In this document: piece by piece, positions 32,475-51,463 of the stretch
How the letters are laid out: every line of letters starts with the position of its first letter
Numbering within the stretch: the stretch's first letter is position 1
NCBI GenBank assembly: GCA_016699795.1
Contig: CP065011.1
Coordinates: forward strand, 78,168 to 142,167
Source: Candidatus Moraniibacteriota bacterium
GTDB lineage: Bacteria; Patescibacteriota; Minisyncoccia; Moranbacterales; GCA-2747515
Direction: 5' to 3'
Length of the DNA: 64,000 nt
The notes under the pieces: generated by a model
What the model was told of the DNA's origin: nothing
The model's database searches: none
What the model saw: the letters and a program-made list of their open reading frames with translations, nothing else
Translations under genes and position numbers: made by a program

Positions 32475-33629
32475 CTATTTTGTCAATACTAATTTTACTT
32501 CTTGAGCACATTTCCTCCAAGAATATTTCATAGAAACTTTCTTGGCTCTCAATATGATTTCTTCTCGCAATACCTTATCTTCCAATATCTCATTTAATGC
32601 TAAAGAGATTTCTTCAGGTCGAAAGGGGTCTACATAGAGAGCACCTTCTCTTGCAATCTCTCCAAGAGATGAGGAAGATGATGTGATAACTGGAACACCA
32701 CATTTCATTGCCTCTACTACCGGAAAACCAAAACCTTCGTACAAAGAAGGATAAAGAAATACAGTTGCTAAATTATAAAGTTTTTTCTTATCATCTTCAC
32801 AAATAAAACCTATGCGTCGAATATCTTTTTTGTATGGACTATCCTCAATTTCTTTTAGCATCTCCTCTTCTCTCCATCCCGAAGAGCCTGCAAGAATAAG
32901 TTGTACGGGAATGTCTTTTTTTATTTTTACACGTGATCTTCTATATGCGGTATATCCCCGAACAATAGCTTTTATATTTTTCCTCGGTTCAAATGTCCCC
33001 ATGTAAAGAATAAAACGATAAGGAAGTTTTAATTTATCCTTAAAAGTCAATAGATCCAAGTCATTTCGATTCATGATGCCATAGTTATTGGAAATTCCAC
33101 TATGAATAACATCTATCTTTTCTTCTTTTATTCCATAAAAACGAATAATATCATTTTTCGTTGAGTGAGAAACCGCGATTAAATTATTGGCTCGGAAAAA
33201 GAGCTGTCGTGGATTTACAAAAATATGCCACAGTCTTCGTTTTAAAGAAAAGGTTTGAGGATAAATATCAAAAGAAACATCATGAACAGTCAAAACGAAA
33301 CGGCATTTTGGTGAAACTGAAATAAATCCTAAATTTGGAGCAAAAAAAATATCTACCCCACCCATGAAAATATCTAAATACGGTCTTCGAAAATACCAAA
33401 GACAAAAATTAAGGATTTTATTGGGTATTTTTTTTCGACAAATGGTAACATTTTTATATTTTTCTACCCATGAAAAATCTGGGATATTTTGAAAAAAAGC
33501 ATTAAAAAAAAGAACAAATGTGTGCTCGGGTGATGATTCCACGAGTCTTGTTATCACATTTCGAGCATATTCTTCAACTCCTGTACACCTTCCTCCAGTA
33601 AAACACCGCGCATCAATTCCGATTTTCAT
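32475..33629 (-). CDS. Glycosyltransferase family 4
   Basis: MKIGIDARCF... N-terminus, and EGFGFPVVEAMKCGVPVITSSSSSLGEIA, the donor-binding motif of GT4. Confidence 0.7.
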   Translation of the reverse strand: MKIGIDARCFTGGRCTGVEEYARNVITRLVESSPEHTFVLFFNAFFQNIPDFSWVEKYKNVTICRKKIPNKILNFCLWYFRRPYLDIFMGGVDIFFAPNLGFISVSPKCRFVLTVHDVSFDIYPQTFSLKRRLWHIFVNPRQLFFRANNLIAVSHSTKNDIIRFYGIKEEKIDVIHSGISNNYGIMNRNDLDLLTFKDKLKLPYRFILYMGTFEPRKNIKAIVRGYTAYRRSRVKIKKDIPVQLILAGSSGWREEEMLKEIEDSPYKKDIRRIGFICEDDKKKLYNLATVFLYPSLYEGFGFPVVEAMKCGVPVITSSSSSLGEIAREGALYVDPFRPEEISLALNEILEDKVLREEIILRAKKVSMKYSWRKCAQEVKLVLTK

Positions 33630-33693
33630 ATTCTATGCTCTTATTATCATACGGCTATAAATCTCTTTTCTAGAAATACTGTCTTGAAAAAAT

Positions 33694-34311
33694 CTAACTT
33701 TCAAAATGAGTTCGGATACCAACACCCCACAACCCAAAAACAATTCCCACAGCCAACGCTCCCAAAAGTACTCGAGTCCATGGTATATGATAAGGGTATG
33801 TTATCGGCTTTTCTACAACAACTCGAAACCATGTAATATTTTTTTTAGACTCGTCAATATTTAGATTTGCCGTTCTCTCATTAAGAACTTTCTCTAAAGA
33901 AGTTGCAAGATCTTGGGCTATCTTCTCTGTTGCGGTAGTATATCGAACTTCTATGTATTGAGAAGAAAGACGCTTTGCTGAAAAAATCTTTGGCAATTCA
34001 TATTCCGCTGGCATAACAACACTTCTACCAATTCCAGAATAAATATCAGCAACAATACTTGGTGAAGCAAGCCAACGAACGAGCGTGTCAGCAAAACGCT
34101 CATCCGCTTGAAGCCTATAAAAGTCATCATAGTGATATTCTTCCGCCTGAGTTTCATTATGAACTCTACCCACATGAAGAGAAAGAACGGTTGTGTATCG
34201 AACTGGTTGCAAAAGAAGGAAAAGTACAACTATCCCCACTGTGGAAGCTACTATCAAAAAAAACATAAAATGATATTTTTTTAATTTAGCAATAAATTCT
34301 TTCAGTTCCAT
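33694..34311 (-). CDS. Polysaccharide co-polymerase (Wzz-like) family protein
   Basis: 205 aa. N-terminal TM, soluble domain, Pro-rich KPITYPYHIPWTRV, then C-terminal TM (LLGALAVGIVFGLWGVGI). Confidence 0.4.
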   Translation of the reverse strand: MELKEFIAKLKKYHFMFFLIVASTVGIVVLFLLLQPVRYTTVLSLHVGRVHNETQAEEYHYDDFYRLQADERFADTLVRWLASPSIVADIYSGIGRSVVMPAEYELPKIFSAKRLSSQYIEVRYTTATEKIAQDLATSLEKVLNERTANLNIDESKKNITWFRVVVEKPITYPYHIPWTRVLLGALAVGIVFGLWGVGIRTHFES

Positions 34312-34322
34312 ACAATATTCCT

Positions 34323-36623
34323 TTACTTTATAAAATTTCCATCTTTTTTCATTTGATCGAGTCGAACTGAAAGGATTTGTGAAACACCATCCTCCATAGT
34401 AACTCCATAAAGAACATCCGCTTTTTGCATAGTTTCTCGATTGTGAGTAATAACAATAAACTGAGTTCGCGACGAAAGAGTTCTTAATAAATTTCCAAAA
34501 CGCTTTGAGTTCGTTTCATCCAAAGAAGCCTCAACTTCATCAAGAAAGACAAAGGGTGGTGGATTATAAGAAATAATTGCAAAAAGAAGAGCCAAAGAAA
34601 CTAAAGATCTCTCTCCCCCAGAAAGAACGCCCAATTGATCTATTTTTTTCTTAGGAGGTTTTACAATGATATCGACACCCCACTTTGCATATTTTCTTTC
34701 ATTTATCAAAACTTCATCATATTCATCATAGAATTTATCCTCTTCCTCTTCTTGATCTTCAGAGAATTCTTTTACCTTTTCCAAACTTGCCGTACCACCA
34801 TCAAACATTAATGTAAAATATTTTCCAAATTCTTGATTTATTTTCTCAAAAGCTTCTGAAAAATCTTTCTCTATTCGAATATTCATTTCACGTATTACTT
34901 TTTCCAAAGAAATAACAGCTTGCTCAAGATCATTATGTTCACGAACAAGAAAAGAATATCGTTCATTAGTTTCTGAGTATTCCTGTGCAATCATAGGATC
35001 TATACCCCCTATCATAGCTAATTGAGATTTAAGTCTCTCTATAAAGCGAAATGTTTCATCATTCGCCTGTATATCTTCCCCAATTTCAAGAGCGAGCGAT
35101 TTTGGATCTCGACCCAGTTCTGATTGAATTTCCCTTTCTAAATCTTCTTTTCTGATTTCACATCGAGTAAAAGCAATTTTTTTCTCGTTAAAAGATTTTC
35201 TTACTTGATAAAGATTCTCCCGAATATTAACTATTTCTTTTTCGAGGGAAAAATAAAGAGTACTTGCATTTTTCGTATCTGCCTCCAAAAGAAGAATTTC
35301 TTTTTCTTTTTTAAGAATTTCTTTTTCTTTTTTAAGAATTTCTCTAGAAAATTCTTGAACCTGTTCTTCTCCTTTTTGAATCTTTTCCTCAAAAAATTTC
35401 CTTTCTTTTTCTAAAATTTCTTTTTCTCTTCCAATTCGAACCGTTGATTGAGCACAATCTTCATAAAGAGAATCTATTTCTTCAAGAAAATTATCAAGAA
35501 ACTTTTTTCTCTCTTCCAAAGAAACTTTTTTTTCTCTTCCAAAGATTATATTCATTTCTTGAAAAGATTTTTTGAGACTCAAAAGTCGCTTCCTCACAAA
35601 AGGAAGATCCACAGGAATGACATCAAAAATTCTCTGATGATTCTTTCTTTCTTTTTCAACATCGATCATTCCCTGACATTGAGATCTCTTTCTTTCAAAT
35701 TCGGAAATTTCTCTTCTTAATAATGCGATCTTTTTTTGAAGTAAATTACTCTGAGAAGTTTCTTGCATTTTGTTTGAAACCGAACTTTGTTGAGAAATAT
35801 ATTTTTGTAATTTTTGTTCCAATACATTCTCCTCCTTTTCTAAAATTAAAAGTATAGATTGAAATTCTTCATATTCACAAGAAAATCTTTTCCACAAAAC
35901 TCTATAATAGGATGATTGGATAATACGAAGTTGATCTTCAATTTCTCTTCTTTGTTCAGCACGTTTTGATTGACGTTTCAAAATACGCAATCTCGGTTCT
36001 ATTTCTTCAATAAGCTTCCCTGTTATAAGAAGATTTTCTCTTGTTGTTATAAGTCTTTTTATCGAACGGTCCCGTTTTATTTGATAAGGTTTCACACCAG
36101 CAGCTTCTTCTAAAATACTTCTTCGCTCCATCGATGAAGCTGATAATATTGCATCAGACATCCCTTGGTTAAGAACGCATTGACTTTCTTTTCCAATACC
36201 GATAGAAGCAAAAAGGTCAATAACATCTAAAAGTCTAACTTGCGTTCCATTTATAAGATATTCTCCTTCTCCGCTTTTATAAATCTTTCTTGTTACCAAA
36301 ACATCCTGATAATCAACATCCATCTTTTTGTCTGAATTATCAAAGACAAGAGTTACTGTTCCAGAGCTCATCATTGATCTCTTTTTCGAACCAGAGAAGA
36401 TAACATCATGGGATTTTTTTGCACGAAGACTTTTTGTAGATTGTTCACCCATAACCCAGCGAAGAGCATCTACAATATTTGATTTTCCAGAACCATTCGG
36501 ACCCACAATAGCTGTCACACCAATACGATCAGGATCTCGATCTTTTTGTAAAACACAAAAAAAGAGCTCTGTTTTAGTAGCAAAAGATTTAAAACCATTT
36601 AAAATTATTTTTTGTAAATACAT
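34323..36623 (-). CDS. smc: SMC-family chromosome segregation ATPase, short form (766 aa, no obvious hinge)
   Basis: N-terminus KIILNGFKSFATKT...IVGPNGSGKSNIVDALRWVMGEQS (SMC head, Walker A). C-terminus LSGGERSLVSLALLFAI...FLDEVEASLD (signature plus Walker B). Long coiled coil between. Much shorter than canonical ~1150-aa SMC. Confidence 0.65.
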   Translation of the reverse strand: MYLQKIILNGFKSFATKTELFFCVLQKDRDPDRIGVTAIVGPNGSGKSNIVDALRWVMGEQSTKSLRAKKSHDVIFSGSKKRSMMSSGTVTLVFDNSDKKMDVDYQDVLVTRKIYKSGEGEYLINGTQVRLLDVIDLFASIGIGKESQCVLNQGMSDAILSASSMERRSILEEAAGVKPYQIKRDRSIKRLITTRENLLITGKLIEEIEPRLRILKRQSKRAEQRREIEDQLRIIQSSYYRVLWKRFSCEYEEFQSILLILEKEENVLEQKLQKYISQQSSVSNKMQETSQSNLLQKKIALLRREISEFERKRSQCQGMIDVEKERKNHQRIFDVIPVDLPFVRKRLLSLKKSFQEMNIIFGREKKVSLEERKKFLDNFLEEIDSLYEDCAQSTVRIGREKEILEKERKFFEEKIQKGEEQVQEFSREILKKEKEILKKEKEILLLEADTKNASTLYFSLEKEIVNIRENLYQVRKSFNEKKIAFTRCEIRKEDLEREIQSELGRDPKSLALEIGEDIQANDETFRFIERLKSQLAMIGGIDPMIAQEYSETNERYSFLVREHNDLEQAVISLEKVIREMNIRIEKDFSEAFEKINQEFGKYFTLMFDGGTASLEKVKEFSEDQEEEEDKFYDEYDEVLINERKYAKWGVDIIVKPPKKKIDQLGVLSGGERSLVSLALLFAIISYNPPPFVFLDEVEASLDETNSKRFGNLLRTLSSRTQFIVITHNRETMQKADVLYGVTMEDGVSQILSVRLDQMKKDGNFIK
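35295..35336. repeat. Perfect 21-bp tandem duplication inside smc coiled-coil region
   Basis: aatttctttttcttttttaag x2 (35295-35315, 35316-35336). Encodes KEKEILK-KEKEILK. Confidence 0.85.
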
Positions 36624-36699
36624 ATATCTGAGAGTGATCTTTTCATTTCAAACAAAAGTAACACATTCCGCACCTCTCCGACAATAATACTTCATTTCT

Positions 36700-37395
36700 T
36701 TAAAGCCATGACTTTTTCTCCAAAGCTAATCGAGCGGCATTTCGTTGCGCTTCTTGTTTTGAAGGGCCCGCCCCTTCAGCAATAAGTTCATTTCCGAGAT
36801 AAGCACCCACGACAAAAACCCGATCATGATCCGGTCCATTGGAAGAAAGTTCTTTATACGTGGGAGTTATACCCACTATTTCTTGAGCTTTTTCTTGGAA
36901 ATAACTTTTTGAATCTAAATAGAGCTTTTTTTCTAAAACTTCAGCCAAACGAGATATGATAAAACGTTCAACGAATTTTTTCGCCTCTTCATAACCCTTG
37001 TCTAAATAAATAGCTCCGATTATGGCTTCCACAGCATTAGCAAGAATGTATTGTCGCGCTCGACCAACATCCCTTGCTTCCCCTCTACTCATAAGAAGTT
37101 GGGGCTCTATATTAAGACTATTAGCAACACTTGATAACATTTCACCACAAACCAAAGCAGCTCTCCAAGAAGTCATTTCTCCTTCAGGATTCGGATAGGT
37201 ATCATATAAATATCTCGTCACTACTAACTCTAAGACAGCATCCCCCAAAAATTCCAATCGTTCATTATGATCAAGCGCATACGAACGATTCTCGTTAAGG
37301 TATGATCGGTGAGTAACTGCTTGTTGATAAAGGTCAATATTATTTGGTTCTACACCAAAAGATTCAAAATAAACAAGTATATCTTTCTTTGTCAT
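36700..37395 (-). CDS. rnc: Ribonuclease III
   Basis: ERLEFLGDAVLELVVTRYLY (RNase III signature), with C-terminal dsRBD. Start taken at MTKKDILVYFESFG (the track ORF extends 18 codons further). Confidence 0.85.
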   Translation of the reverse strand: MTKKDILVYFESFGVEPNNIDLYQQAVTHRSYLNENRSYALDHNERLEFLGDAVLELVVTRYLYDTYPNPEGEMTSWRAALVCGEMLSSVANSLNIEPQLLMSRGEARDVGRARQYILANAVEAIIGAIYLDKGYEEAKKFVERFIISRLAEVLEKKLYLDSKSYFQEKAQEIVGITPTYKELSSNGPDHDRVFVVGAYLGNELIAEGAGPSKQEAQRNAARLALEKKSWL

Positions 37396-37486
37396 AACTA
37401 AAAAGTTTCTCAGCTCGCGCTTGATTTCCATGCGCCAACAGATAAACAAATGTTTTTCAAAAAAAATTGATTAAAAAACTTTTCTT

Positions 37487-38017
37487 TTATTCACTCTCTT
37501 CTTTTTGTAAAGGATCTTCCGATTTAATAGTAAAGATACCTTTTTTTTCAAGTCTTTCTCTGTTCTTTTGAGAATCATCGTCTTTCATAGGCTCTCCCAT
37601 TTCTCGATATATTGTTCCCAAAACGCCATTTACAAAACGAAATGAACTATCCCCTCCAAATGTCTTAGCTAATTCTATAGATTCATTTATAGCAACTTTA
37701 GGTGGAACTTCTTCATAATTTCCAAATAGCAATTCATAAATACCCAAACGAAGAATCGCCCTATCAACAGCCGCAATCTTTTCAACTGGCCATTCAGGTG
37801 CGCATTTAGATATAAATACGTCGATTTGAGAAATATTTTCAATAACTCCAAAAACAATTCTTCCTGCAAGATCTGAATCTTCTACGCCAGGAGCGAATTG
37901 TTCAACATTTCGACTCAAAATGGATTTCATTTCACGATTCTTTCCTAGCAAAGCATAAAAATCCCATTCAAAGAGAGATTGCATTGCTAAGGATCGTTGG
38001 AGATGGCGATTTGCCAT
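37487..38017 (-). CDS. nusB: Transcription antitermination factor NusB
   Basis: [17 protein letters not shown]...[17 protein letters not shown]... is NusB helical-fold conservation. C-terminal ~35-aa extension. Confidence 0.8.
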
Positions 38018-38058
38018 AAAATAAAGAACTTATACCACTAAATATTACAAAAAACAAT

Positions 38059-38241
38059 TTATTCTTTGCTAGAAATAACTTGTCGTCCACGATAAGTTCC
38101 ACATTCAACACATGCTCGATGAGGAACTGTTTTAGAACCACAACTCTTACAGGGAACAACGCTAGGGGTCTTAAGCACGCTATTATGGCTTCTTCTTCTA
38201 TCACGTCTTGAACTCGTGTGTCGTCTTTTTGGTACTGACAT
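38059..38241 (-). CDS. rpmF: 50S ribosomal protein L32 (zinc-ribbon type)
   Basis: MSVPKRRHTSSRRDRRRSHNSV...CKSCGSKTVPHRACVECGTYRGRQV. Confidence 0.85.
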   Translation of the reverse strand: MSVPKRRHTSSRRDRRRSHNSVLKTPSVVPCKSCGSKTVPHRACVECGTYRGRQVISSKE

Positions 38242-38313: not shown

Positions 38314-39978
38314 TTACATTTCACGTAAGTCTCCCTCTTCTCGAACAAGCGCTAATGTCTTTGCCTTACCGAAAAGACGAGAATAAACCTTTTTTCGAAA
38401 ATCACAAAATTCTTCAATACGAAGCCAATGACTCATTATTATATATGCTATAACCCCAATTGAACCAGCAAAAAAAAGACGTCCAAAAACTTCCCAAAAA
38501 GTATTAAGGTCAGTGATACTTCCCCAAAACAATTTCATAATCTGAACACATACTCCCGAAACAAAAACTGCTAAAAGCATAGGAAATATATTTAAAGATA
38601 CGCCAGTTTTTTTATCCATCCAGCCACTCCCCACACGCCTTCTTAAAAAGAAAAAGAGGAGAAAGATTTGAACGATACTCGCAAATGAAAAAGCAATGGC
38701 CAAAGAATAAACACCCCATATTTTCCATGTTAAAAGAATGCCTATGATATTTATACATTGCGAAAAAAGAGCAACAAAGAAAGGCGTTTTTGTGTCCTCT
38801 AGAGAATAAAAAGCGCGTATAGTAAGAGGAAGAAGGCTTTGTGCGAATAAACTTATAGAAAGAAGGCCTAAAACTTGAAATGTTCTTGTTGTATCTTCCC
38901 AATTAAAAACTCCGGAACCAAGAACAACTCGAACTAATTCTGCTCGAAGTAAAATAAGGAAAACAGAAGCAGGAATAACAAAATATAATATTCGACGTGC
39001 AGTTCCTATGAAAATATGTCGAAAATTTTCCATATTTTCTTCATCAACAGATGCACTTAATTTTGGAAATGCAGCAACAGCAAAAGATACTCCAATAATA
39101 GCTAAAGGAATACTTTGAAAATTATTAGCAAAATTAAATACAGCAAGAGATCCCGATACCATTATTGAAGCAAATAAAGTAATTATCCAAAAATGTATTT
39201 GTGAAGATGCAATCGAAAAAATTTGAGGAAACATAAGAAGTAATATCTTTTTTATTTTTGGATTTTTCCATGGAAATGCATAAGGACATTGAAAACGATA
39301 GCCACTTCGAACAACGGATATTGCCTGTATAAAAAAATGAAGTATCGATCCCATTACAACACCCCAAGCAAGACCAGAAGACCCAAATTTTTCAGAAAAA
39401 AACAGAATACCAAAAATAATTCCAATATTATACAAAATTGGTGCTATCGCATAAGCAAGAAATGATCTCTTAGAAATGAGCACACCCCCAAAAACAGCAC
39501 TCGCACCCAAAAATATTGGGCTAAGGAGCATTATTCTTGTCAGTTCTATCGTTGCTTCCAATTTTTGCCCCGAAAAACCAGGAGCTACCGCATAAACGAA
39601 AAAAGGCATGCAAAGAAAAGAAATTAAAGCAAAAAAAGTTATAGCCCCAACCAAAAGCAAAAGAAAATCGGATGTTAATTTCCATGCTTCTTCAAAATCA
39701 TCTTTTGCATAAATTTTCGAAAAGACAGGTATAAAAGCAGCACTTAAAGCACCTAAAACAAGTATTCCGTAAAGAAAATCTGGGATTCGAAATGATGCAT
39801 AATAAACATCAAGAACGTCTCCAGCTCCAAAAGTAGAAGCTAATAATCTATCTCGGATAAGCCCAAGAATTCGACTTAATATTCCGAATATAGCCAAAAT
39901 CAAAGCAGCTCCGGCTACTGTAGATATCGGCCGAGAAAAATGAGAAAACCAATCTAAGAAAAAAATTCTATGAATCAT
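38314..39978 (-). CDS. murJ: Lipid II flippase MurJ (MviN)
   Basis: 554 aa, ~14 TM. N-terminal ILSRILGLIRDRLLASTFGAGDVLDVYYASFRIPDFLY is the MurJ signature. Confidence 0.8.
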   Translation of the reverse strand: MIHRIFFLDWFSHFSRPISTVAGAALILAIFGILSRILGLIRDRLLASTFGAGDVLDVYYASFRIPDFLYGILVLGALSAAFIPVFSKIYAKDDFEEAWKLTSDFLLLLVGAITFFALISFLCMPFFVYAVAPGFSGQKLEATIELTRIMLLSPIFLGASAVFGGVLISKRSFLAYAIAPILYNIGIIFGILFFSEKFGSSGLAWGVVMGSILHFFIQAISVVRSGYRFQCPYAFPWKNPKIKKILLLMFPQIFSIASSQIHFWIITLFASIMVSGSLAVFNFANNFQSIPLAIIGVSFAVAAFPKLSASVDEENMENFRHIFIGTARRILYFVIPASVFLILLRAELVRVVLGSGVFNWEDTTRTFQVLGLLSISLFAQSLLPLTIRAFYSLEDTKTPFFVALFSQCINIIGILLTWKIWGVYSLAIAFSFASIVQIFLLFFFLRRRVGSGWMDKKTGVSLNIFPMLLAVFVSGVCVQIMKLFWGSITDLNTFWEVFGRLFFAGSIGVIAYIIMSHWLRIEEFCDFRKKVYSRLFGKAKTLALVREEGDLREM

Positions 39979-42984: not shown

Positions 42985-44124
42985 CTACTCTTTCGATGTT
43001 TGTGTGTACACCCGATGAATTATATGAATGAAACTCCTCCATTTATACTTTTTCACCTGCTCATATCCCCTACGAATACATCGATTTCGAACATCTTCAT
43101 TATCTAAAACCATTCTCATTGCCCGCCCTAGAGAATTCTGATCCTTAACATCACAATACAAAGATGCTCTTCCTTGAATTTCCGGCATAGCACTTATTCG
43201 AGAACTTATCACAGGAATTCCTCTTGCCATTGCTTCCAAAGGAGGAAGGCCACATCCTTCATAAAGAGAAACAAACGTAAATGCTTTTGCCTCCCTATAA
43301 AGAACATCTAAAATATCATCACTTACTTCCCCCACAAATATAATAATTTTTTCTTCCATAGCTTCAGAAAAAAATTCCTGAAGACGTTTATAAAAAATAT
43401 CTATTTTTCCCACAAGAACAAGACAAATATCATCTCTTTTTATTGAAAGAAATGCCTCTATAAGATTCGAAAGATTCTTATGTGGGTAAGCATTTCCTAC
43501 ATAAAGAAGATACGGTTTTAGTATACCACATTTTTTCAATATATCTGAATAGTCTGATGAATTTTTTAAATCTCTCTTTATAAGAGAAAAAAAGGGTTGA
43601 TACGCTACAGTAATTTTTTCTTTTGGAAGAAACGGATAATGAGAAATAATATCTTTCTTTGAAAATTCCGACACCGTTAATATATGAGAAGCTCTTTTTA
43701 AGGAAGTACGTAAAATATATTTATATGCATAAAATTTAAATATATAAAAAAAGAAAAATAATGTTGAATTTTTTTGATGAGTGCTGTGTCGAAGAAGAAT
43801 AAGATCATGAATTGTAACCACAAAAGTTCTTCGATAAAAAATAGGAACATTAAAATGTAAAAAATGAACCAGATCAAGTTTATATCTTCGAAGTATTTTC
43901 GGCATTAAAAATTGCTCTCGAAATCCATACCACGGAATATCGGCAAGAATTTTATGAAATCGATCATTTTTTGGTATATATTCAGAAAAATTTTGACTAC
44001 GCAAGAAAATAAAATATTCATTCTCTCTGTCCTCTAATTCCAGATAATGAATAAGTTGTTGTGTGTATCGACCAAGACCTTTTCCAAGTTTTCCATAGAA
44101 TCTCGCATCAATACCTATTCGCAT
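42985..44124 (-). CDS. Glycosyltransferase family 4
   Basis: MRIGIDARFYGKLGKGLGRY...EGCGLPPLEAMARGIPVISS. Start trimmed to the internal ATG (track start 44199 would overlap the upstream gene by 53 nt). Confidence 0.7.
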   Translation of the reverse strand: MRIGIDARFYGKLGKGLGRYTQQLIHYLELEDRENEYFIFLRSQNFSEYIPKNDRFHKILADIPWYGFREQFLMPKILRRYKLDLVHFLHFNVPIFYRRTFVVTIHDLILLRHSTHQKNSTLFFFFYIFKFYAYKYILRTSLKRASHILTVSEFSKKDIISHYPFLPKEKITVAYQPFFSLIKRDLKNSSDYSDILKKCGILKPYLLYVGNAYPHKNLSNLIEAFLSIKRDDICLVLVGKIDIFYKRLQEFFSEAMEEKIIIFVGEVSDDILDVLYREAKAFTFVSLYEGCGLPPLEAMARGIPVISSRISAMPEIQGRASLYCDVKDQNSLGRAMRMVLDNEDVRNRCIRRGYEQVKKYKWRSFIHIIHRVYTQTSKE

Positions 44125-44146
44125 AGAACAAAAAATAAGAGGTGAT

Positions 44147-45433
44147 TCAATTTTTCTTGGGAAGAAGTGTTTCAATAGCTTTGTCCAGTTGTGGATCACG
44201 ATCTTTTTGATAATCCTCTTCTGTCATGAGGACTTCTATTTCAGGTGAAATCCCTTCTTTATCTATATGTTCACCTGAAGGGGTTAGCCATTTAGCTATT
44301 GTTATTTTTGCAGCTGTTTTTTGAGGCAAAGGAACAAGTTCTTGCACGGAACCTTTTCCAAAACTTTTCTCTCCTATTAAGGTAACGTCTTCTCTATGAT
44401 GTTTCAAAGCTCCTGCTAAAATTTCTGAAGCACTCGCACTCCCTCTATTAATAAGAATAACCATTGGCATTTTAGAAAGATATTCTGTCTCCGTTGTTTT
44501 TGTTGAACGTAATTCATTTCTTTTTCCACTTCCGTCTTCTTCAATAACAACAATTGATCCAGGATTGATCATCATACTTGCTATTTCAACCGCTGTAGAA
44601 AGATATCCTCCTGGATTATTACGAAGATCAATAACTAATGATTTCATATTTGCCATTCGAGCATTCCCTACAGCAACACGAAATTCTTGAAGTGTTTTTT
44701 CTCCAAACTGTCGAATTTCAATTAATGCTACATCATCACGCATTTCCAGAACAACACTCTCTACTTTTATAGTTTCACGAACTATACTCACATCAATCGT
44801 TTTTGACGCTCCTTCTCGAATAATAGTCAAAACGACTTCCGTTCCTTTTACTCCTCGTATCTTCGATACGGACTCCACAAGGCCCATATCTGTGATATCT
44901 TCTTTATTTACAGCAATAATAATATCTCCCGATCGAAGTCCCGCGCGATCAGCTGGAGACTCTTTTAGCGGGGCCACTACGGTCAATAATTCATTCTTTT
45001 TTTCTAATTCAGCACCAATTCCTTCAAACTCTCCTGATATACTTTGATCAAATTCTTTATTTTCTTCAGGATCGAAAAAAGTTGTATAAGGATCTCCTGT
45101 AGCATGGAACATTCCTTCTATAGCACCATAAATTATCTCTTGATTATTTATTTTTTTAGTATCCACAAATTTTTCCTTGAGAATATCCCATGATTTCCAA
45201 AATAAAGAAAAATCTGCGTCAAAATTCGAAGGGTTACAGGAAGAATTATCTCCAAAAGCAAAAGAAGATAAAGATGTTCCTAAACCACCTTCTTTTCCTT
45301 GTGTATATCCATAACGATATACACCGAAAAATGAAATAAAAAGAATAACCCAAAATAAAAAATATCGTAAAAAAAGAAATCTTTCTTTATTCTTTGGGGA
45401 GGTTTGCATTGTTTCTTGGGTATGATTTTCCAC
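44147..45433 (-). CDS. Carboxyl-terminal processing protease (S41, CtpA/Prc-like) with PDZ domain
   Basis: PDZ (GLRSGDIIIAVNKEDI), then ILINRGSASASEILAGALKHH and a catalytic Ser/Lys dyad region. N-terminal TM. The true start may be the internal M at ~45409. Confidence 0.75.
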   Translation of the reverse strand: MENHTQETMQTSPKNKERFLFLRYFLFWVILFISFFGVYRYGYTQGKEGGLGTSLSSFAFGDNSSCNPSNFDADFSLFWKSWDILKEKFVDTKKINNQEIIYGAIEGMFHATGDPYTTFFDPEENKEFDQSISGEFEGIGAELEKKNELLTVVAPLKESPADRAGLRSGDIIIAVNKEDITDMGLVESVSKIRGVKGTEVVLTIIREGASKTIDVSIVRETIKVESVVLEMRDDVALIEIRQFGEKTLQEFRVAVGNARMANMKSLVIDLRNNPGGYLSTAVEIASMMINPGSIVVIEEDGSGKRNELRSTKTTETEYLSKMPMVILINRGSASASEILAGALKHHREDVTLIGEKSFGKGSVQELVPLPQKTAAKITIAKWLTPSGEHIDKEGISPEIEVLMTEEDYQKDRDPQLDKAIETLLPKKN

Positions 45434-46214
45434 GGTATTTCCAAAAATATTTTAACGCACTATCTATATGTATCCATGTTAGTTTATTCCATAAAAGCGA
45501 TCGAATCAACCCCCCATTTGCACTTCCCTTTCCGTGAAAATGATAAATTCTTGCTTTAGGGAAATAAATAACTTTTTTTCCAATCTCCCAGTATCTTCTA
45601 CACAAATCAGTATCTTCAAAATACATAAAAAATCGAGAATCAAAACCTCCTATTTTTTTCACTTCCCTACGTCGAACCATCATTGCAGATCCCATTATCC
45701 AATCAGGTTCAGAAATTTCATCATTTCCGAATTCTTTCATTGTAAATTGTTCTAAATGTTTTTTGGCGAAAGCAAGCTTTCCCAAAAAAGTTCGTCGATA
45801 AAGAACCGTTATGGGACTATAAAAACGAAATCGCGTATTTTGAACAGATCCATCAAAATTTAAAACCTTTGGTGCAACCAATCCAACATCCGGATTCTTA
45901 TCTAAATACATACCGAGATTTATAAGAGCCTCCTGATCTATAATAGAATCATAGTTAATAAAAAAAATGTAGTCTCCTCGAGCGTGTTTAAGTCCACAAT
46001 TAGCAAGAGCTCCCATTCCAACATTTTTTTTATGAGGGAAAAAGTGAATATTTGGAAAATCTTCCCGCATCATCATTTCCGTATCTTCTTCAGTTTCAGA
46101 ATCAGCCACAATAATTTCCGCCTCAAGACCTTTCGTTGCAGACATCGCATTTCGAACACACCGAGAAAGCATCTGGGCATTCTTATAACTATTGATAGCA
46201 ACAGTATATTTCAT
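45387..46214 (-). CDS. Glycosyltransferase family 2
   Basis: YTVAINSYKNAQMLSRCV...FINYDSI (DxD region)...FFMYFEDTDLCRR, the classic GT2 (GT-A) motifs. Confidence 0.7.
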   Translation of the reverse strand: MKYTVAINSYKNAQMLSRCVRNAMSATKGLEAEIIVADSETEEDTEMMMREDFPNIHFFPHKKNVGMGALANCGLKHARGDYIFFINYDSIIDQEALINLGMYLDKNPDVGLVAPKVLNFDGSVQNTRFRFYSPITVLYRRTFLGKLAFAKKHLEQFTMKEFGNDEISEPDWIMGSAMMVRRREVKKIGGFDSRFFMYFEDTDLCRRYWEIGKKVIYFPKARIYHFHGKGSANGGLIRSLLWNKLTWIHIDSALKYFWKYRGKSYPRNNANLPKE

Positions 46215-46237
46215 ATTATAAAACTCTCATTTTTGTA

Positions 46238-47440
46238 TTATTTTTGAGAACTTTTTTCTTTATCTACAGCGCCATCTTCTTTAGGAAGAAATGATTGAAA
46301 CATTTCACGAATACGGTCATAGGAGTCCCCTCGAGGAAGAAGAATATATCCAGCGTCTCCTGTATTTTCAGGAGCATAAAGAAGACCTTCTTCAGAATTT
46401 TCTAAAACTTTTTGAGGTATATCTTGTTTATCTTGAAAAGATTGAACGAACTCAAAAAACTTCTTCATTTCCCACAATTGAAGATCCGTTCTAAGATTAT
46501 TTCCAAGAGCATCGAGTATTGCATTTACTTTATCTATATCAGTAACCAGGCCCAAAGAAAAAGCTTTCTCTTTTAATAGCTTAATAACTTCTTGTTGGCG
46601 TCTTGCTCGATCGAAATCGCTAGAAGTAACTCGTGAACGAACATAGCATAAAGCCTGCTCTCCATTTAAAGTATTCTTTCCTGCTGGAACTCTAAAAATA
46701 CCTCCGCATTCCTCTTCTGCGTTATAACACAAAGGATACCTAGCACTTATTTTTCCAGTTTTTTTACTTATTTTTTCTTGATAATTCCCAGAAGGAACAG
46801 TGAAGACATTTGCATCACAAACACGTTCTTCATGAAACTGTAATGGTTCAATAAATTCATTTTCTAAAACAATTTCTATACCACCAAGAGCATCGATAAG
46901 TTCTTCAAAAGCTTTAAAATCAATACGAATAGCATAATGTATTTCTTGACCAAGAATATCAGAAAGGACAGTTTTCATATATTGCAAACCTTCTCCTTCA
47001 CCTTTCTCTTCTCCTAATGTATGTATAGCATTTATTTTTACTCTATTCGTTGTTTCAGGAACAGCCACCTGAAGATCTCGAGGTATACTCACCAAAGAAA
47101 CTGACCCTGTTTTATTGATACTTACTATCATTATAGTATCCGAAAGAAGTCCACCCCCCTCAACTCCCAAACCACGCATACCAAGAAGGACAATATTTGT
47201 TCGACCTTCTTCGGTAGATTTAAGCTCATCAGAAACGCCAGGCAATGATCGAAAGAGACTATTCATAACTCCAGCATTAGGAGCTATTTTTATAATTGTT
47301 TTTCCAAACCAAAAAAAGATCACCAACAAAAGAAGAAAAAATACAGCTATTACACTAATGATTATTTTCTTTTTCTTAGAAAATTTTTCTTTCTTTTGAT
47401 CGGTATTATTTTGCAATTTCTTTGTTCTTGTTAAAATCAT
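46238..47440 (-). CDS. LytR-CpsA-Psr (LCP) family glycopolymer transferase
   Basis: N-terminal TM. NIVLLGMRGLGVEGGGLLSDTIMIVSINKTGSVSLVSIPRDL is the LCP core signature. Confidence 0.75.
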   Translation of the reverse strand: MILTRTKKLQNNTDQKKEKFSKKKKIIISVIAVFFLLLLVIFFWFGKTIIKIAPNAGVMNSLFRSLPGVSDELKSTEEGRTNIVLLGMRGLGVEGGGLLSDTIMIVSINKTGSVSLVSIPRDLQVAVPETTNRVKINAIHTLGEEKGEGEGLQYMKTVLSDILGQEIHYAIRIDFKAFEELIDALGGIEIVLENEFIEPLQFHEERVCDANVFTVPSGNYQEKISKKTGKISARYPLCYNAEEECGGIFRVPAGKNTLNGEQALCYVRSRVTSSDFDRARRQQEVIKLLKEKAFSLGLVTDIDKVNAILDALGNNLRTDLQLWEMKKFFEFVQSFQDKQDIPQKVLENSEEGLLYAPENTGDAGYILLPRGDSYDRIREMFQSFLPKEDGAVDKEKSSQK

Positions 47441-47467
47441 AAAAAAATATTTATATAAAAATCACTC

Positions 47468-48604
47468 TTACATTTTATGGTATACTTCCGCAAGCATTTG
47501 AGCTGATTTCTTCCAATTAAAAAGCTTTTTTCTCTCAGAACCTTTTTCCCGAAGAGACTGAGAAAAATGCTTGTCTATGATGACACGATAAAGAGATTCC
47601 GTCAATATTTCTTTTTTAAAGGGAACAAACAAGGCAGCATTTTCAGCCACTTCTCTATAAGGAGGGATATCAGAAACTACAAGAGGAATATTTCGAGCCA
47701 TTGCTTCAAGAAGAGGTAATCCGAAGCCCTCATAGAGAGAAACACTCACAATAGTATCAGAAAGATCCATAATAATTTTAAGATCCTCCTCTGGGATATA
47801 TCCCAGGAAGAGAACGCTTTTTTGAAGCTTATATTTTATAATGGTCTCCTCGATAGATGTGTCGAAATGATACGACTTTTTTGATCCTGTAAACACCAAT
47901 GCCACATCTGGAATTTTTTTTAAAAGTTGAGAAAATGCTACCAAAAGAAATGGTATATTTTTTCGAGGCTGAAGAGTTCCTATGTGGAAAATAAATTTTT
48001 TCGGTAATATATATTTCTTTTTTACTTCTTCTTTCTGAAAATTAGTAGAAATATCTTGTCCATATACGTCCTCTACAGCATTAGGAATAACAAATATTTT
48101 TTCAGATTTTATTCGATAATAATGTATCAATTCTTCTTTTGTAAATTCTGAAACAGCAATAATCGCCGAAGAACGTTCAATACTTTTTGGAATAAGTGTT
48201 TGAAGAAAAAATCTATCTTTGTAAGAAAGATATTCGGGGTATCGTGCAAAAGAAATATCATGAATATGCGTTATCATCTTTGTCTTTTTTGGTATCCCCC
48301 ATGGAAGAATATATTGAGTATGATAAATATCTAGATCTAATTTTCTTGCAGCATTTTGAGCAGAAAAAGCATTCCATAAAAATTTATTTCCATTTCCACA
48401 TTGATACAAAGAAGTATCTCTAAAAGCTTTTACTCCTAAACGATTTTCTAAGATTTTTATTTCTTCTTCTGTTCGATCATCCAAAAGAAATCGAAAAGAG
48501 TCTTCTTCGCTTACCAGAGGAAGATATTTTGCTAAATGAAAAAATACTGTTTCATCACCAGTTCTATTCTTTCCTACATTTCGGATATCTAATCCAATTT
48601 TCAT
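47468..48604 (-). CDS. Glycosyltransferase family 4
   Basis: MKIGLDIRNVGKNRTGDETV... and C-terminal EGFGLPLLEAMARNIPLVVSDI. Confidence 0.7.
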   Translation of the reverse strand: MKIGLDIRNVGKNRTGDETVFFHLAKYLPLVSEEDSFRFLLDDRTEEEIKILENRLGVKAFRDTSLYQCGNGNKFLWNAFSAQNAARKLDLDIYHTQYILPWGIPKKTKMITHIHDISFARYPEYLSYKDRFFLQTLIPKSIERSSAIIAVSEFTKEELIHYYRIKSEKIFVIPNAVEDVYGQDISTNFQKEEVKKKYILPKKFIFHIGTLQPRKNIPFLLVAFSQLLKKIPDVALVFTGSKKSYHFDTSIEETIIKYKLQKSVLFLGYIPEEDLKIIMDLSDTIVSVSLYEGFGLPLLEAMARNIPLVVSDIPPYREVAENAALFVPFKKEILTESLYRVIIDKHFSQSLREKGSERKKLFNWKKSAQMLAEVYHKM

Positions 48605-48618
48605 ACTAATGTAAAATT

Positions 48619-50241
48619 TTAATTTACTTTCTTTCTGGGATCATCGGATTGAGAAGACTTTTCATACAAAAGAGGCACTACCAAACCCAACCACATCCAA
48701 AGCATACCCAAAAATTCTGCAGAATTAAAGAAGTTAAATATTCCCACTACACAAAAAGTAGAAAAAATTCCGTATCCAATAATTCTCGTTGATCGTTTTC
48801 TCGAAAAAATACTTTGAAAAATACTCCGCACTATATCACCAAAAATAAAAAATAAACCTATTACACCCAATAATCCTGATCCTATAGCAATATTTAAGAA
48901 GATATTACTTGCATTAAGTATTTCTCCTCTCCCGTCATATCCAAAAAGAAATTCCATCGAACCCCAACCCACACCAAAAAAACCGTATTCACGAAGAGCT
49001 TGAAAAGACTTCATCCATACGTTTTTTCGTTCAGAGACATTTGGATCATTTCTAAAAACGCGAGTAACGAATTTTCCTAGAGACTCTTCTTTTTCTCTTT
49101 CTTCTAAATTAATGTGATAACAACCCATTTTACTTAATTCTTCCAAAGAATATGTTAAATTTTCTGAAAAAATCATTTCTTTCTGACATGAAATAGTTAT
49201 TTCTTGAAGGCCAGAAATGCTTGATTGAAAACGATTTTGAAGTTCGAAATGAGTAAGGGGAATTATACGTACATAAAGGATTGCCACAAGAAAAAAAAGG
49301 AGGAGAAAGCCTATTTTCTGCATACTTTTCATCCCGTATTCCAAAAATGAAAAAATAAATAGAATTATCAAGCCAAAGGAGGAAGCTAGCCAAGCGCTTC
49401 GCGAAACGCTAATAATAAGTGCAACACAAACAAATAACAAAGCAATTCCTATAATTATAAAAAATAATTTTTTTTGATACTTTTCTCGAAAAAAAAGAAA
49501 GGTGTGCACAAGTAAAATCAATGCTAATGCCATTCCCAATCCAAACCAATCTGGTTCAGAAAAGAATCCATTAGGACGTCCTGGCATACTTTCGGATGGA
49601 AATGTCCAATGCTGAAGAAATGCTATATTTTGAAATATTCCCCAACAGGCCAACAAGAAAAAATCAAAAATAATCCAAGGAAAAAGAGAGAAAACATCTT
49701 TCTTCGTACGAAAATTCCAACGAATTATTCCATACATAAAAAGAAAAGAAAGCATAATAATACTGAGTCGAAAACTTTCTTGAAAAAACGGAGAAAAAAA
49801 AGAAGAAAGTAAGCTTCCTATCCCCAAAAGGAGAACTCCCCCATCAATAAATCTAAAATGAAACGGTATTGTATTTATTTTCTTACATTTTAAATGAGGA
49901 AATAAATTTTGAAATTTCAATTGTATATTTTTTCGTTCAAAAATGAAAAAACGAATACATGAAGAAAAAAATAAAGACAATGCAAAAAATTGATAAGGAC
50001 GCAAAGAAAATGATACGGATTCAGGAAGAAAATTTATTATTTCAAAAACACTCGACACTACAAAAATTGAAAGTGCTTGTTTAAAAAAGAATAAAGAAAA
50101 TAGGAAAAAAATAAAGAAAAAAAGAACACTCAACCAAAAAGGAAAAGATATCTCAAGAAAAGAGATTCCTCCAAGAAAAAGGCCTATTCCTAGTGTAAGA
50201 AAAATAGAAAGTATTTTTCCTGTTTTCAAAAAAAATATCAT
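48619..50241 (-). CDS. O-antigen ligase / Wzy-like polymerase family membrane protein (second copy)
   Basis: 540 aa, many TM helices. IISVSRSAWLASSFGLIILF parallels the YSRAAWG motif of 2355-3743, with a large extracytoplasmic loop. Confidence 0.55.
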   Translation of the reverse strand: MIFFLKTGKILSIFLTLGIGLFLGGISFLEISFPFWLSVLFFFIFFLFSLFFFKQALSIFVVSSVFEIINFLPESVSFSLRPYQFFALSLFFSSCIRFFIFERKNIQLKFQNLFPHLKCKKINTIPFHFRFIDGGVLLLGIGSLLSSFFSPFFQESFRLSIIMLSFLFMYGIIRWNFRTKKDVFSLFPWIIFDFFLLACWGIFQNIAFLQHWTFPSESMPGRPNGFFSEPDWFGLGMALALILLVHTFLFFREKYQKKLFFIIIGIALLFVCVALIISVSRSAWLASSFGLIILFIFSFLEYGMKSMQKIGFLLLFFLVAILYVRIIPLTHFELQNRFQSSISGLQEITISCQKEMIFSENLTYSLEELSKMGCYHINLEEREKEESLGKFVTRVFRNDPNVSERKNVWMKSFQALREYGFFGVGWGSMEFLFGYDGRGEILNASNIFLNIAIGSGLLGVIGLFFIFGDIVRSIFQSIFSRKRSTRIIGYGIFSTFCVVGIFNFFNSAEFLGMLWMWLGLVVPLLYEKSSQSDDPRKKVN

Positions 50242-50263
50242 ATTTCACAAATATACTTAGACA

Positions 50264-51463
50264 CTAGACCTTCACATTCGCAAATAATATATCAACAAAG
50301 CGTTCCCAAGAAAAAAGTTGGGATCTCAAAATTCCCCGCCGACGTAATTCTTTTCGAAGATTCTCATCTTTCATTATTTCTCGCATTGCATCGGCGATAC
50401 CATTAATACTTCCATCGCAATATCGAGCAGCGTCCCCCGCAACCTCACCAAGAGAGGTTTTTTTGGTAGTAATAACAGGTGTTCCTGCATACATAGCCTC
50501 TAAGACCGGCATTCCAAATCCCTCATACAAAGAAGGAAAAATGAAACACATTGATTCACTATAAAGTGCGCTTATATCATTTTGAGGTACATTTCCAAGG
50601 ATTTTTACACGATCTCTTAAGCCTAATTCTCGAACAAGAGTTTCCACATCTACAATGAGTGGTGCTAAATGAGGAAGAAGAGTTCCGGATAAGACAAGAT
50701 GAGGAATGCTTCTTCGATCACCATCATCATCTGCTAATAATTTATATGCTCGAATAACCGATTCGACATTTTTTCGGACCTCGAAACCTCCAGAATAGAA
50801 AAAATATTGCTTTGGGAGTGCGTAATGATTTCTCACAAGAGAAGCCTTTTCTTTTGTTACCGGCTCAGAGAATAAAGGGTTTACAGCGATCAATGCTAAA
50901 GAAATTTTATCCGGAGCTATATTTAATTTTTGGATAAGATCTTTTTCTGTATGCTTCGAAACTGACAGAATACGATCAGATTTTTTGATACCAGATTTTA
51001 CACTTTTCCACGAAAAACGCTTTCTCATATTATTCGTATATCCATCCACAACCTCTGGAATAATGTCATGCACCACCATAGCATGAGAAATCCGAGAAAA
51101 AGAAGAAAATGTCGTTGCACTTTGATATAAACTTATAAAAGCATCCAGAGTGTCTTTTTTTGCTTGTTTAGGAATGGCCCATTTTTCAAAAAGCCATTTT
51201 CTTATAAGATCATCTCTCTTATACACTACCTCAGGGACTCTTTTTAGAAAACTTTTTGAAACACCTGTAGCTTCATCTTTTTCCAAATAAAGAAAAAAAG
51301 AAACGTCCTTTGCGTCAACTCTTTTATTATGGGCAAAAATATAGAAATCTCTTTTTGAAATTTCACGCAAAACATTCACCGTTACCTGACCTATTCCAGT
51401 ATACGGCTTACGAAGAAATGAAGCATTGATTCCTATTCTATACATATTTTTAGTATACTCCAT
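50264..51463 (-). CDS. Glycosyltransferase family 4
   Basis: MYRIGINASFLRKPYTGIGQ... and EGFGMPVLEAMYAGTPVITT. Confidence 0.7.
   Translation of the reverse strand: MEYTKNMYRIGINASFLRKPYTGIGQVTVNVLREISKRDFYIFAHNKRVDAKDVSFFLYLEKDEATGVSKSFLKRVPEVVYKRDDLIRKWLFEKWAIPKQAKKDTLDAFISLYQSATTFSSFSRISHAMVVHDIIPEVVDGYTNNMRKRFSWKSVKSGIKKSDRILSVSKHTEKDLIQKLNIAPDKISLALIAVNPLFSEPVTKEKASLVRNHYALPKQYFFYSGGFEVRKNVESVIRAYKLLADDDGDRRSIPHLVLSGTLLPHLAPLIVDVETLVRELGLRDRVKILGNVPQNDISALYSESMCFIFPSLYEGFGMPVLEAMYAGTPVITTKKTSLGEVAGDAARYCDGSINGIADAMREIMKDENLRKELRRRGILRSQLFSWERFVDILFANVKV

Follow-up and report, generated by a model that had tools for sequence, protein, structure and literature searches.

DUF4012 proteins in conserved envelope-glycan modules of a Moranbacteria genome: a predicted LCP-like fold and a candidate role in glycopolymer assembly

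Introduction

LCP phosphotransferases ligate polymers and neither polymerize nor export them. Hallmarks of these enzymes are conserved Arg and Asp residues, whose ligands are Mg2+ and the pyrophosphate on the lipid-linked donor, and a hydrophobic tunnel for the polyprenyl chain.

DUF4012 (Pfam PF13196) is a family of 13,747 clusters at 50% identity, with several copies present even in 1-Mb CPR genomes. Its link to polysaccharides has been published previously: in the eps cluster of Bifidobacterium longum 105-A, BL105A_0406 lies between a priming glycosyltransferase and Wzz, the trio is conserved among bifidobacteria, and BL105A_0405 to BL105A_0407 are listed among the predicted transmembrane proteins (PMC5412050). 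BL105A_0406 itself is annotated merely as an "auxiliary/envelope protein," and no mutant or structural analysis of this gene is reported there (PMC5412050). DUF4012 also shares its monoderm/CPR distribution with other envelope families, and belongs with the families enriched in CPR (PMC6744442). Literature searches for PF13196 / IPR025101 returned nothing, and one combining LCP with Patescibacteria returned nothing relevant.

The window analyzed here, a stretch of 64,000 nucleotides, comes from the chromosome of a Candidatus Moraniibacteriota bacterium (Moranbacteria, CPR/Patescibacteria), an uncultured organism with a tiny genome.

Results

Gene content and organization of the window

The glycan gene content of the window (Table 1) is ordinary for a monoderm-type envelope. 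It falls into three envelope-glycan modules that are separately conserved in Moranbacteria and lie side by side here by happenstance: module i, in the order beta-helix protein, GT4, PCP-like protein, short DUF4012 and rfbC/rfbB; module ii, in the order GT4, long DUF4012 and MurJ; and module iii, in the order GT4, Wzy_C, GT4, LCP, GT2 and S41. Chance does not account for the gene order, since each module is found with its genes arranged alike in other Moranbacteria. The preliminary description had treated the 19 kb at 32475-51463 as one very large glycopolymer assembly locus. Gene content and conserved synteny bear out a wall-glycopolymer pathway; the single dedicated operon or locus is rejected, as the genes for SMC, RNase III and NusB, which that description did not name, interrupt the stretch. 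Further, the LCP/Wzy module and the GT4–DUF4012–MurJ module lie ~240 kb apart in genome JBGSQF01; the 19-kb stretch is a juxtaposition of modules. A promoter and terminator scan gave no enrichment over shuffled sequence and did not resolve operon boundaries.

Table 1. Features of the window. All listed glycan, PCP-like, DUF4012 and housekeeping genes lie on the minus strand.
Feature	Position (strand)	Module	Evidence and remarks
GT4 / Wzy_C pair	1108-3743 (-)		Further pair
PCP-like, two TMs	9001-9690 (-)		CpsC-family-like
rfbB	14252-15217 (-)	i	dTDP-rhamnose pathway, downstream of short DUF4012; Pfam 1.4e-82
rfbC	15214-15774 (-)	i	dTDP-rhamnose pathway, downstream of short DUF4012; Pfam 7.6e-70
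Short-form DUF4012	15862-17235 (-)	i	457 aa; PF13196 82.8 bits, 4.5e-23
PCP-like, two TMs	17283-18332 (-)	i	TMs 10-28 and 163-181; K/E-rich cytoplasmic tail
Divergent GT4-like glycosyltransferase	18316-19509 (-)	i	No Pfam match itself
Right-handed beta-helix protein	19570-20538 (-)	i	Secreted or anchored; Pfam Beta_helix 1.3e-27; first gene of module
GT4	32475-33629 (-)		Pfam
PCP-like, two TMs (third)	33694-34311 (-)		205 aa
SMC	34323-36623 (-)		Housekeeping
RNase III	36700-37449 (-)		Housekeeping
NusB	37487-38017 (-)		Housekeeping
MurJ/MOP-family flippase	38314-39978 (-)	ii	Pfam MurJ 7.7e-86; conserved downstream partner of long DUF4012
Long-form DUF4012	40002-42953 (-)	ii	983 aa; PF13196 107.8 bits, 8.8e-31
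GT4	42985-44199 (-)	ii	Pfam; conserved upstream partner of long DUF4012
S41+PDZ protease	44147-45433 (-)	iii	Pfam
GT2	45387-46214 (-)	iii	Pfam
LCP	46238-47440 (-)	iii	Pfam; canonical LCP of the window
GT4	47468-48604 (-)	iii	Pfam
Wzy_C	48619-50241 (-)	iii	Pfam
GT4	50264-51463 (-)	iii	Pfam

Most individual assignments of the preliminary description are matched by Pfam: the GT2, Wzy_C, LCP, MurJ, S41 and 983-aa DUF4012 proteins of the 19-kb stretch, and the upstream rfbBC pair, second DUF4012 protein and beta-helix protein. Five GT4 enzymes had been counted in that stretch, where Pfam gives four. The glycosyltransferase also named upstream lacks a Pfam match of its own, but its orthologues, in L001 and other loci, hold the same module position and match the GT4 family. 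Scattered among the upstream glycan genes (9001-20538) are genes for an HtrA-like protease and for an ADP-forming acyl-CoA synthetase.

Taken by function, the window holds Wzx/Wzy-type parts: a MurJ flippase, two Wzy_C proteins, three PCP-like proteins and an LCP ligase. A scan for a priming phosphoglycosyl transferase covered 60 ORFs of the window, all 100 aa or longer (the other ORFs in this size range are mostly short and nested in longer ones), and gave no Bac_transf or MraY-type match; the gene for such an enzyme may lie in another part of the genome.

The order and orientation of module i are kept over dozens of genomes at ~50% protein identity. The position of the beta-helix gene is conserved in 25 loci, and the order short DUF4012, rfbC, rfbB is found repeatedly in many. 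Module iii is compact, with 14-27 bp between its first five genes and an overlap between GT2 and S41; the same order occurs in L087 and L088, and GT4 orthology agrees.

For module ii, the comparison comprised the window and two other Moranbacteria genomes or contig sets (L002/L003 and L004/L005), all of which contain the trio of GT4, long DUF4012 and MurJ. Between the GT4 of the window trio and its counterparts, which immediately precede long DUF4012 in L002 and L004, identity is 48-49%. The GT4 at 32475-33629 is 44% identical to GT4b of L004, where this orthologue lies directly upstream of the trio. It is conceivable, if quite improbable, that the long DUF4012 works with MurJ in peptidoglycan (lipid II) metabolism, and not on a secondary glycopolymer: the trio is the tightest conserved one, it comes after mreBCD-PBP2 in L002, and its flippase scores as a bona fide MurJ (7.7e-86). 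However, the GT4 partner and GT4 neighbors are foreign to canonical lipid II synthesis, homologues in Actinobacteria and bifidobacteria occur in EPS clusters, and MurJ-family flippases, members of the MOP superfamily, are able to flip other polymers too.

PCP-like proteins

All three proteins described earlier as Wzz-like have the topology of PCPs, with two TMs around an extracytoplasmic domain and a Pro-rich segment before TM2. Profile matches are weak: none of the three reaches the curated cut-off of a Wzz or CpsC model, and none matches Pfam Wzz. The protein at 9001-9690 matches NCBIfam TIGR01006 (CpsC) at E=1.1e-7 and 31.5 bits, against a cut-off of 296. That at 17283-18332 is tied to it by iterated search and hhalign only. 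The third, at 33694-34311, has no Pfam or NCBIfam match; it consists of a TM, ~140 aa, a Pro-rich motif and a second TM, and hhalign aligns it to the profiles of the other two at 84-87% probability, including the Pro-rich motif before TM2.

Two DUF4012 paralogues

Both DUF4012 proteins lie above the Pfam gathering threshold (28 bits), and both are predicted to cross the membrane once, with a cytoplasmic N-terminus and an extracytoplasmic C-terminus. They share 31% identity over the whole ectodomain (aa 39-423 of the short form) and are paralogues, each with its own orthologous group and its own module. The short form consists of an N-terminal TM (10-28), an alpha/beta domain (~70-290) and a beta-sandwich (295-447); its orthologues are ~456 aa long, at 50-77% identity across Moranbacteria. 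The long form begins with a K/E-rich cytoplasmic N-terminus (aa 1-335) and a TM (337-355), followed on the outside by a helical bundle of ~190 aa, an alpha/beta domain (~547-750) and a C-terminal beta-sandwich (~763-983). Translation may in fact begin at Met13, given that the database lists an identical protein at 971 aa. Its orthologous group is separately conserved in Moranbacteria, at 750-1070 aa. Among eight long members of the family searched for domain fusions, DUF4012 alone was found.

DUF4012 neighborhoods beyond this genome

The profile search of genome contigs matched Moranbacteria and Parcubacteria loci only, and tblastn against plasmids was used for further, cross-phylum context. 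The gene order in B. longum is priming glycosyltransferase, DUF4012, Wzz. Five actinobacterial plasmids carry DUF4012 in polysaccharide context, often directly after a priming sugar transferase; this is the order in R. qingshengii and Streptomyces NBC_00467, and in Streptomyces NBC_01320 an O-antigen-ligase cluster and a pair of genes for a tyrosine autokinase and an LMW-PTP adjoin DUF4012. In the examined regions of B. longum, Rhodococcus and Streptomyces, the annotation within +/-9 kb of DUF4012 lists no LCP gene. The polysaccharide context proposed in the preliminary description applies to both window copies, B. longum and the five plasmids, but not to 24 of the 78 related CPR loci, in which no recognizable glycan gene lies within three genes.

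Those 24 loci, the aaRS, ClpB or histidine kinase genes that adjoin some of these non-glycan paralogues, and E. eligens, where the nearest polysaccharide genes begin only ~7.5 kb away, are what one would expect if co-localization carried no functional meaning and arose by chance in compact, envelope-gene-rich CPR genomes. Such an explanation is very improbable, given the order and orientation conserved across dozens of genomes at ~50% protein identity, and the recurrent, independent placement of DUF4012 beside priming transferases, Wzz and tyrosine kinases in Actinomycetota.

Predicted fold and conserved residues

Structure prediction of the ectodomain, suggested at the outset as a check, gave AF2 models with pLDDT of 88.5 for the long form and 89.4 for the short (pTM 0.85). 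In both, a conserved ectodomain of ~390 aa comprises an alpha/beta domain with a predicted LCP-like fold and then the beta-sandwich. A Foldseek search of the PDB with the short-form model returned Cps2A as its top three matches (E ~1e-4, 232-237 aligned columns), and LCP phosphotransferases are the sole structural relatives of the alpha/beta domain there. The preliminary description had put DUF4012 forward as a polymerization or export component; the fold points elsewhere, to LCP ligases. As LCP proteins are the only structural relatives, a late transfer or ligation step would be the expected one.

Sequence comparison does not recover this relationship. Neither protein has a Pfam or NCBIfam match to LCP (PF03816 / TIGR00350), and neither has a PDB sequence match at E<=1. 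In hhalign, probability was at most 3% in every variant tried (full alignments, domain-trimmed, cross-phylum DUF4012, and LCP profiles plus three PDB LCP sequences). Alignments at low stringency follow the linear order expected from structure, but are non-significant and provide no evidence. In a forced, likewise non-significant alignment, the arginines of the LCP YVRSR helix are not kept, with QVE or Y in their place.

It is possible that the LCP likeness reflects a generic alpha/beta fold, and that DUF4012 is some other extracytoplasmic glycan enzyme, such as a polymerase, transglycosylase, hydrolase/lyase or modifier. We regard this as improbable. The missing arginine motif would fit, as would the coexistence of a canonical LCP and two Wzy_C proteins in the window and the likeness of the beta-sandwich to carbohydrate- or substrate-holding domains (4g2a, OST1 and the M1-aminopeptidase N-domain); yet no glycoside hydrolase, lyase or transferase fold occurs among the structural matches to the alpha/beta domain, and Wzy_C polymerases are already encoded nearby.

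Five residues (E84, R86, G89, G90 and G93) are invariant across CPR, Firmicutes and Actinomycetota and fall in the signature motif FQ[NT]xxExRxxGGxxG. A further seven (D/N143, N145, D171, K228, N303, K308 and D310) are nearly invariant across the same phyla. Together these residues would mark a likely active site. They also bear on whether DUF4012 might be a non-catalytic extracytoplasmic scaffold or adaptor, an "auxiliary envelope protein" that pairs with PCP/Wzz and aids chain-length control or export. This role, which we consider unlikely though worth weighing, would account for the PCP-like gene directly upstream of the short DUF4012, here and in ~45 related loci, for the neighboring Wzz in B. 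longum, for the helical-bundle extension and disordered, PCP-tail-like K/E-rich cytoplasmic tail of the long form, and for the lack of a sequence match to any enzyme family. However, strict (for some, near) invariance of E84, R86, D/N143, K228, K308 and D310 over three phyla is seen more typically in catalytic or ligand-binding sites than in scaffolds, and no homology was detected between the long-form helical bundle and PCP ectodomains.

Discussion

DUF4012 is probably an extracytoplasmic component of glycopolymer assembly. Our fuller proposal, which is more tentative, is that it may be an LCP-like extracytoplasmic enzyme acting on polyprenyl-pyrophosphate-linked glycans. We infer its substrate, chemistry and acceptor as follows: DUF4012 would act at the outer face of the membrane, on glycans carried by polyprenyl pyrophosphate, and would most likely transfer or ligate the finished glycan to its acceptor, whether peptidoglycan or some other part of the envelope. 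Partners of the short form would be its PCP, a GT4 and the dTDP-rhamnose enzymes; those of the long form would be a GT4 and the MurJ-family flippase. Counting against an LCP-like role are the canonical LCP already present in the window, the CPR paralogues without glycan neighbors and the failure of sequence profiles to join DUF4012 to LCP.

A broader reading is possible but doubtful: DUF4012 could be a deeply diverged, ancient lineage within the LCP superfamily and a second widespread class of polyprenyl-pyrophosphate-glycan transferase, serving as the dedicated ligase for Wzy-type capsules, EPS and wall glycans. Its range would take in Actinomycetota, many Firmicutes, Chloroflexi/Cyanobacteria and CPR. 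If true, this would account for the anchoring of polymers where a cluster has no cpsA-type LCP gene.

The association of DUF4012 with polysaccharides is already known; the predicted LCP-like fold would give this large uncharacterized family a testable role. EPS/capsule loci of bifidobacteria, Rhodococcus and Streptomyces carry DUF4012, and an LCP-like transferase would fill in the ligation step in many polysaccharide pathways of Actinobacteria and CPR, including the examined regions without an LCP gene. It would also open a route to the study of the envelope in uncultured CPR bacteria and suggest residues for mutation in tractable hosts: E84 and R86 of the FQNxxExRxxGG motif, K228, K308 and D310.

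Comparison with known systems

BL105A_0406 of the B. longum 105-A eps cluster (PMC5412050) belongs to the same Pfam family as the window proteins, in another phylum.

With Gram-positive Wzx/Wzy loci, the window shares GT4/GT2 glycosyltransferases, a Wzy_C polymerase or ligase-like protein, PCP-like proteins, an LCP ligase, a MOP-family flippase and dTDP-rhamnose genes. The window departs from those loci in several ways: its glycan genes form at least three modules, with housekeeping genes in between; no priming transferase or tyrosine kinase was found in it; its PCPs have diverged greatly; and its flippase is of the MurJ type.

With the LCP phosphotransferases (Cps2A, TagT/U/V, LcpA, MsrR), DUF4012 has in common, by prediction, the alpha/beta fold. 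It differs in having no detectable sequence or profile similarity to them, in its signature motif, in the LCP arginine cluster that it does not conserve, and in an additional C-terminal beta-sandwich that bears several of its invariant residues.

Gene content and modular organization

The window has a G+C content of ~33% and carries nearly all of its genes on the minus strand; its gene content is what is ordinarily seen for an envelope of monoderm type. G+C rises to 42-47% over 4000-8200, where a 575-aa LysM protein (6438-8165) lies among ORFs without family matches. GC skew is negative across the window and turns positive at just two places, each coding for a giant surface protein built of repeats: one of 864 aa and SBBP/Big_13 type (20659-23253), the other of 1244 aa, in which the Pur_ac_phosph_N/fn3 repeat occurs eight times (60108-63842). 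Pfam recovers the GT2, Wzy_C, LCP (LytR-CpsA-Psr), MurJ, S41 protease and 983-aa DUF4012 genes that the preliminary description placed in 32475-51463, as well as rfbB/rfbC, the second DUF4012 gene and the beta-helix protein upstream; it finds four GT4 genes in the interval rather than five. The additional upstream glycosyltransferase (18316-19509) has no Pfam match of its own, although its orthologues are GT4. Pfam scans of 60 of the window's ORFs of ≥100 aa found no priming phosphoglycosyl transferase.

Features of the window and the evidence for their assignment
Feature	Coordinates	Strand	Basis or remark
GT4	1108-2334	-	Divergent from the next gene; outside 32475-51463
Wzy_C	2355-3743	+	Divergent from the preceding gene; outside 32475-51463
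PCP-like protein	9001-9690		No Pfam match
rfbB/rfbC	14252-15774	-	Pfam
Short DUF4012, 457 aa	15862-17235	-	Pfam
PCP-like protein	17283-18332		No Pfam match
Beta-helix protein	19570-20538	-	Pfam
rpoA ORF	29059-29757		Only 232 aa; Pfam matches confined to the N-terminal and insert domains, alpha C-terminal domain undetected
GT4	32475-33629	-	Pfam
PCP-like protein	33694-34311		No Pfam match
SMC, RNase III, NusB	34323-38017	-	Inside 32475-51463; absent from the preliminary description
SMC-family ORF	34323-36623		Only 766 aa, far below typical bacterial SMC; tight cluster NusB, RNase III, SMC, PCP-like, GT4
MurJ	38314-39978	-	Pfam
Long DUF4012, 983 aa	40002-42953	-	Pfam
GT4	42985-44199	-	Pfam
S41/PDZ protease	44147-45433	-	Pfam
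GT2	45387-46214	-	Pfam
LCP protein	46238-47440	-	Pfam
GT4	47468-48604	-	Pfam
Wzy_C protein	48619-50241	-	Pfam
GT4	50264-51463	-	Pfam
tRNA-Ala	53171-53244		
Thrombospondin type-3 repeat protein	53348-54535		C-terminal TM helix; weak similarity to MtsC and Omp28-related models
DUF2339 protein, 630 aa	54574-56466		Polytopic membrane protein; adjoins the thrombospondin-repeat protein
RNHCP-domain (111 aa) and radical-SAM (350 aa) proteins	57294-58659		RNHCP gene overlaps the radical-SAM end; small, conserved-looking pair

The three proteins first described as Wzz-like all have the topology of a polysaccharide co-polymerase (PCP), a ~140-aa ectodomain flanked by two TM helices, and iterated searches with hhalign link them to each other at 84-100% probability, the 100% figure being partly circular because two iterated profiles have sequences in common; Pfam matches are lacking, and NCBIfam gives one of the three a sub-threshold CpsC-family match.

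The interval 32475-51463 had been taken for a single very large assembly locus. Instead, the gene neighbourhoods of homologues reveal three separately conserved units in the window, each in its own order. Module i (beta-helix, GT4, PCP, short DUF4012, then rfbC and rfbB) recurs in Moranbacteria with its genes all on the same strand, in dozens of genomes. Module ii (GT4, long DUF4012, MurJ) is seen in the window and in both other genomes or contig sets examined; the window's GT4 at 42985 is an orthologue, 48-49% identical, of the GT4s upstream of the long form in those two, and the GT4 at 32475 is an orthologue of the next-upstream GT4 in L004, a locus carrying this module. Module iii (GT4, Wzy_C, GT4, LCP, GT2, S41, in some cases GT4) has identical order in two homologous loci, L087 and L088. 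Modules ii and iii abut in the window as a nine-gene co-directional block (51463 to 38314; gaps ≤31 bp or overlaps) and lie ~240 kb apart in the related genome JBGSQF01. The 19 kb thus consist of modules placed side by side, together with housekeeping genes (SMC, RNase III and NusB), and are not one dedicated locus.

Architecture and fold of DUF4012

Each DUF4012 copy lies within a conserved module of glycan genes, and both proteins are membrane-anchored with a conserved extracytoplasmic ectodomain. The short form is 100% identical to a protein encoded on a 1.19-Mb Candidatus Moraniibacteriota contig, which places the source of the window among the CPR/Patescibacteria. On sequence comparison they are paralogues, each representing its own orthologous group (~456 aa for the short form, 750-1070 aa for the long). 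Their 31% identity spans short-form residues 39-423, so the conserved unit is a ~390-aa ectodomain rather than the 144-aa Pfam domain. Further paralogue groups (460-490 aa) occur in these same genomes, among Moranbacteria and Parcubacteria (loci L047, L049, L054-L057, L060-L084), some after a ~500-aa protein with 10-12 TM helices that had no Pfam match in the two copies scanned (L049, L055). The family is large, with 13,747 clusters at 50% identity, and none of the eight long members scanned has an informative domain fusion.

AlphaFold2 models of both proteins are confident. The short form (pLDDT 89.4, pTM 0.85) is predicted to have an N-terminal TM helix, an alpha/beta domain (~70-290) and a beta-sandwich (295-447); the long form (pLDDT 88.5) has in addition 335 cytoplasmic residues rich in K and E (22% Lys) and a ~190-aa helical bundle between TM helix and alpha/beta domain. 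Residues invariant among 185 CPR sequences include N81, E84, R86, G89, G90, G93, D143, N145, E214, K228, N303, K308, D310 and R355. Across CPR, one Firmicute and five Actinomycetota proteins, E84, R86, G89, G90 and G93 are strictly invariant, giving the signature FQ[NT]xxExRxxGGxxG (one of the six outgroup sequences has E in place of Q80), and D/N143, N145, D171, K228, N303, K308 and D310 are nearly conserved.

By these models, LCP is the closest known fold of the alpha/beta domain. Structure matches 3okz, 9gn3, 3pe5 and 3owq rank above TagU (6uf6), TagT (3mej) and BrpA (9cy9); no alpha/beta family other than LCP appears among the best 60, the remaining matches (4g2a, OST1, M1-aminopeptidase N-domains, PIG-T) being due to the beta-sandwich. 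Foldseek independently places Cps2A entries first (E ~1e-4, probability 1.0, 232-237 aligned columns). DUF4012 matches no PDB sequence, and hhalign against LCP gives ≤3% probability in every alignment variant, although the low-stringency alignments follow the order of strands and helices that would be expected. Homology is thus plausible but unproven, and it is not obvious that the LCP arginine cluster is kept. The Moranbacteria LCP proteins themselves, that of the window (46238-47440) among them, have a ~50-aa insertion after the GGV strand and before the YVRSR helix, with four invariant cysteines (C208, C238, C245, C265); LCPs in the PDB do not have it.

Proposed role and genomic context

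We infer, tentatively, that DUF4012 proteins take polyprenyl-PP-linked glycans once these have been flipped and act on them as LCP enzymes do. That they are glycan enzymes of another kind is unlikely. A PCP-like gene lies immediately 5' of the short form in ~45 loci; that DUF4012 is a non-catalytic scaffold tied to the PCP seems rather doubtful, the predicted ectodomain being probably ligand-binding or catalytic. As an LCP-like protein, the short form with its PCP partner would serve a polymer that contains rhamnose. For the long form, the substrate would be what its GT4 partners make, once the neighbouring MurJ-family protein has flipped it; a lipid II-related role beside that MurJ is quite improbable.

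The link between DUF4012 and polysaccharides is already known: in the eps cluster of B. longum 105-A, a member of the family is flanked by the priming transferase and Wzz (PMC5412050), and the family is among those common to CPR and monoderm phyla (PMC6744442). To these published contexts we add five actinobacterial plasmid examples. The gene immediately 5' of DUF4012 encodes a "sugar transferase" in both R. qingshengii and Streptomyces NBC_00467; in Streptomyces NBC_01320, DUF4012 is flanked by a tyrosine-autokinase/LMW-phosphatase pair and a GT/O-antigen-ligase cluster; and on two Rhodococcus plasmids it adjoins an NRPS gene, with polysaccharide genes 3-8 kb away. The polysaccharide setting first proposed from the window's two copies thus recurs in B. 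longum and on these plasmids, and the homologues examined do not refute it. It is, however, a strong tendency and not a rule, because the closest polysaccharide genes begin ~7.5 kb off in E. eligens, 24 of 78 CPR loci have no recognisable glycan gene inside three genes, and some of the further CPR paralogues stand beside genes for an aminoacyl-tRNA synthetase, for ClpB or for a histidine kinase.

The LCP-like two-domain architecture suggested by the models, the cross-phylum invariant motif seen in the alignments and the split of paralogues into separately conserved modules appear new, being described in none of the papers found to mention DUF4012. A big uncharacterised envelope family thereby gains a concrete, testable hypothesis, based on fold similarity alone. 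A CpsA-like ligase role would fit the adjacency to priming transferase, Wzz and tyrosine kinase genes in the Actinomycetota clusters, and the finding of no annotated LCP gene in the five plasmid regions (±9 kb). The comparison behind this reading of the position of DUF4012 is the streptococcal cpsA-E arrangement.
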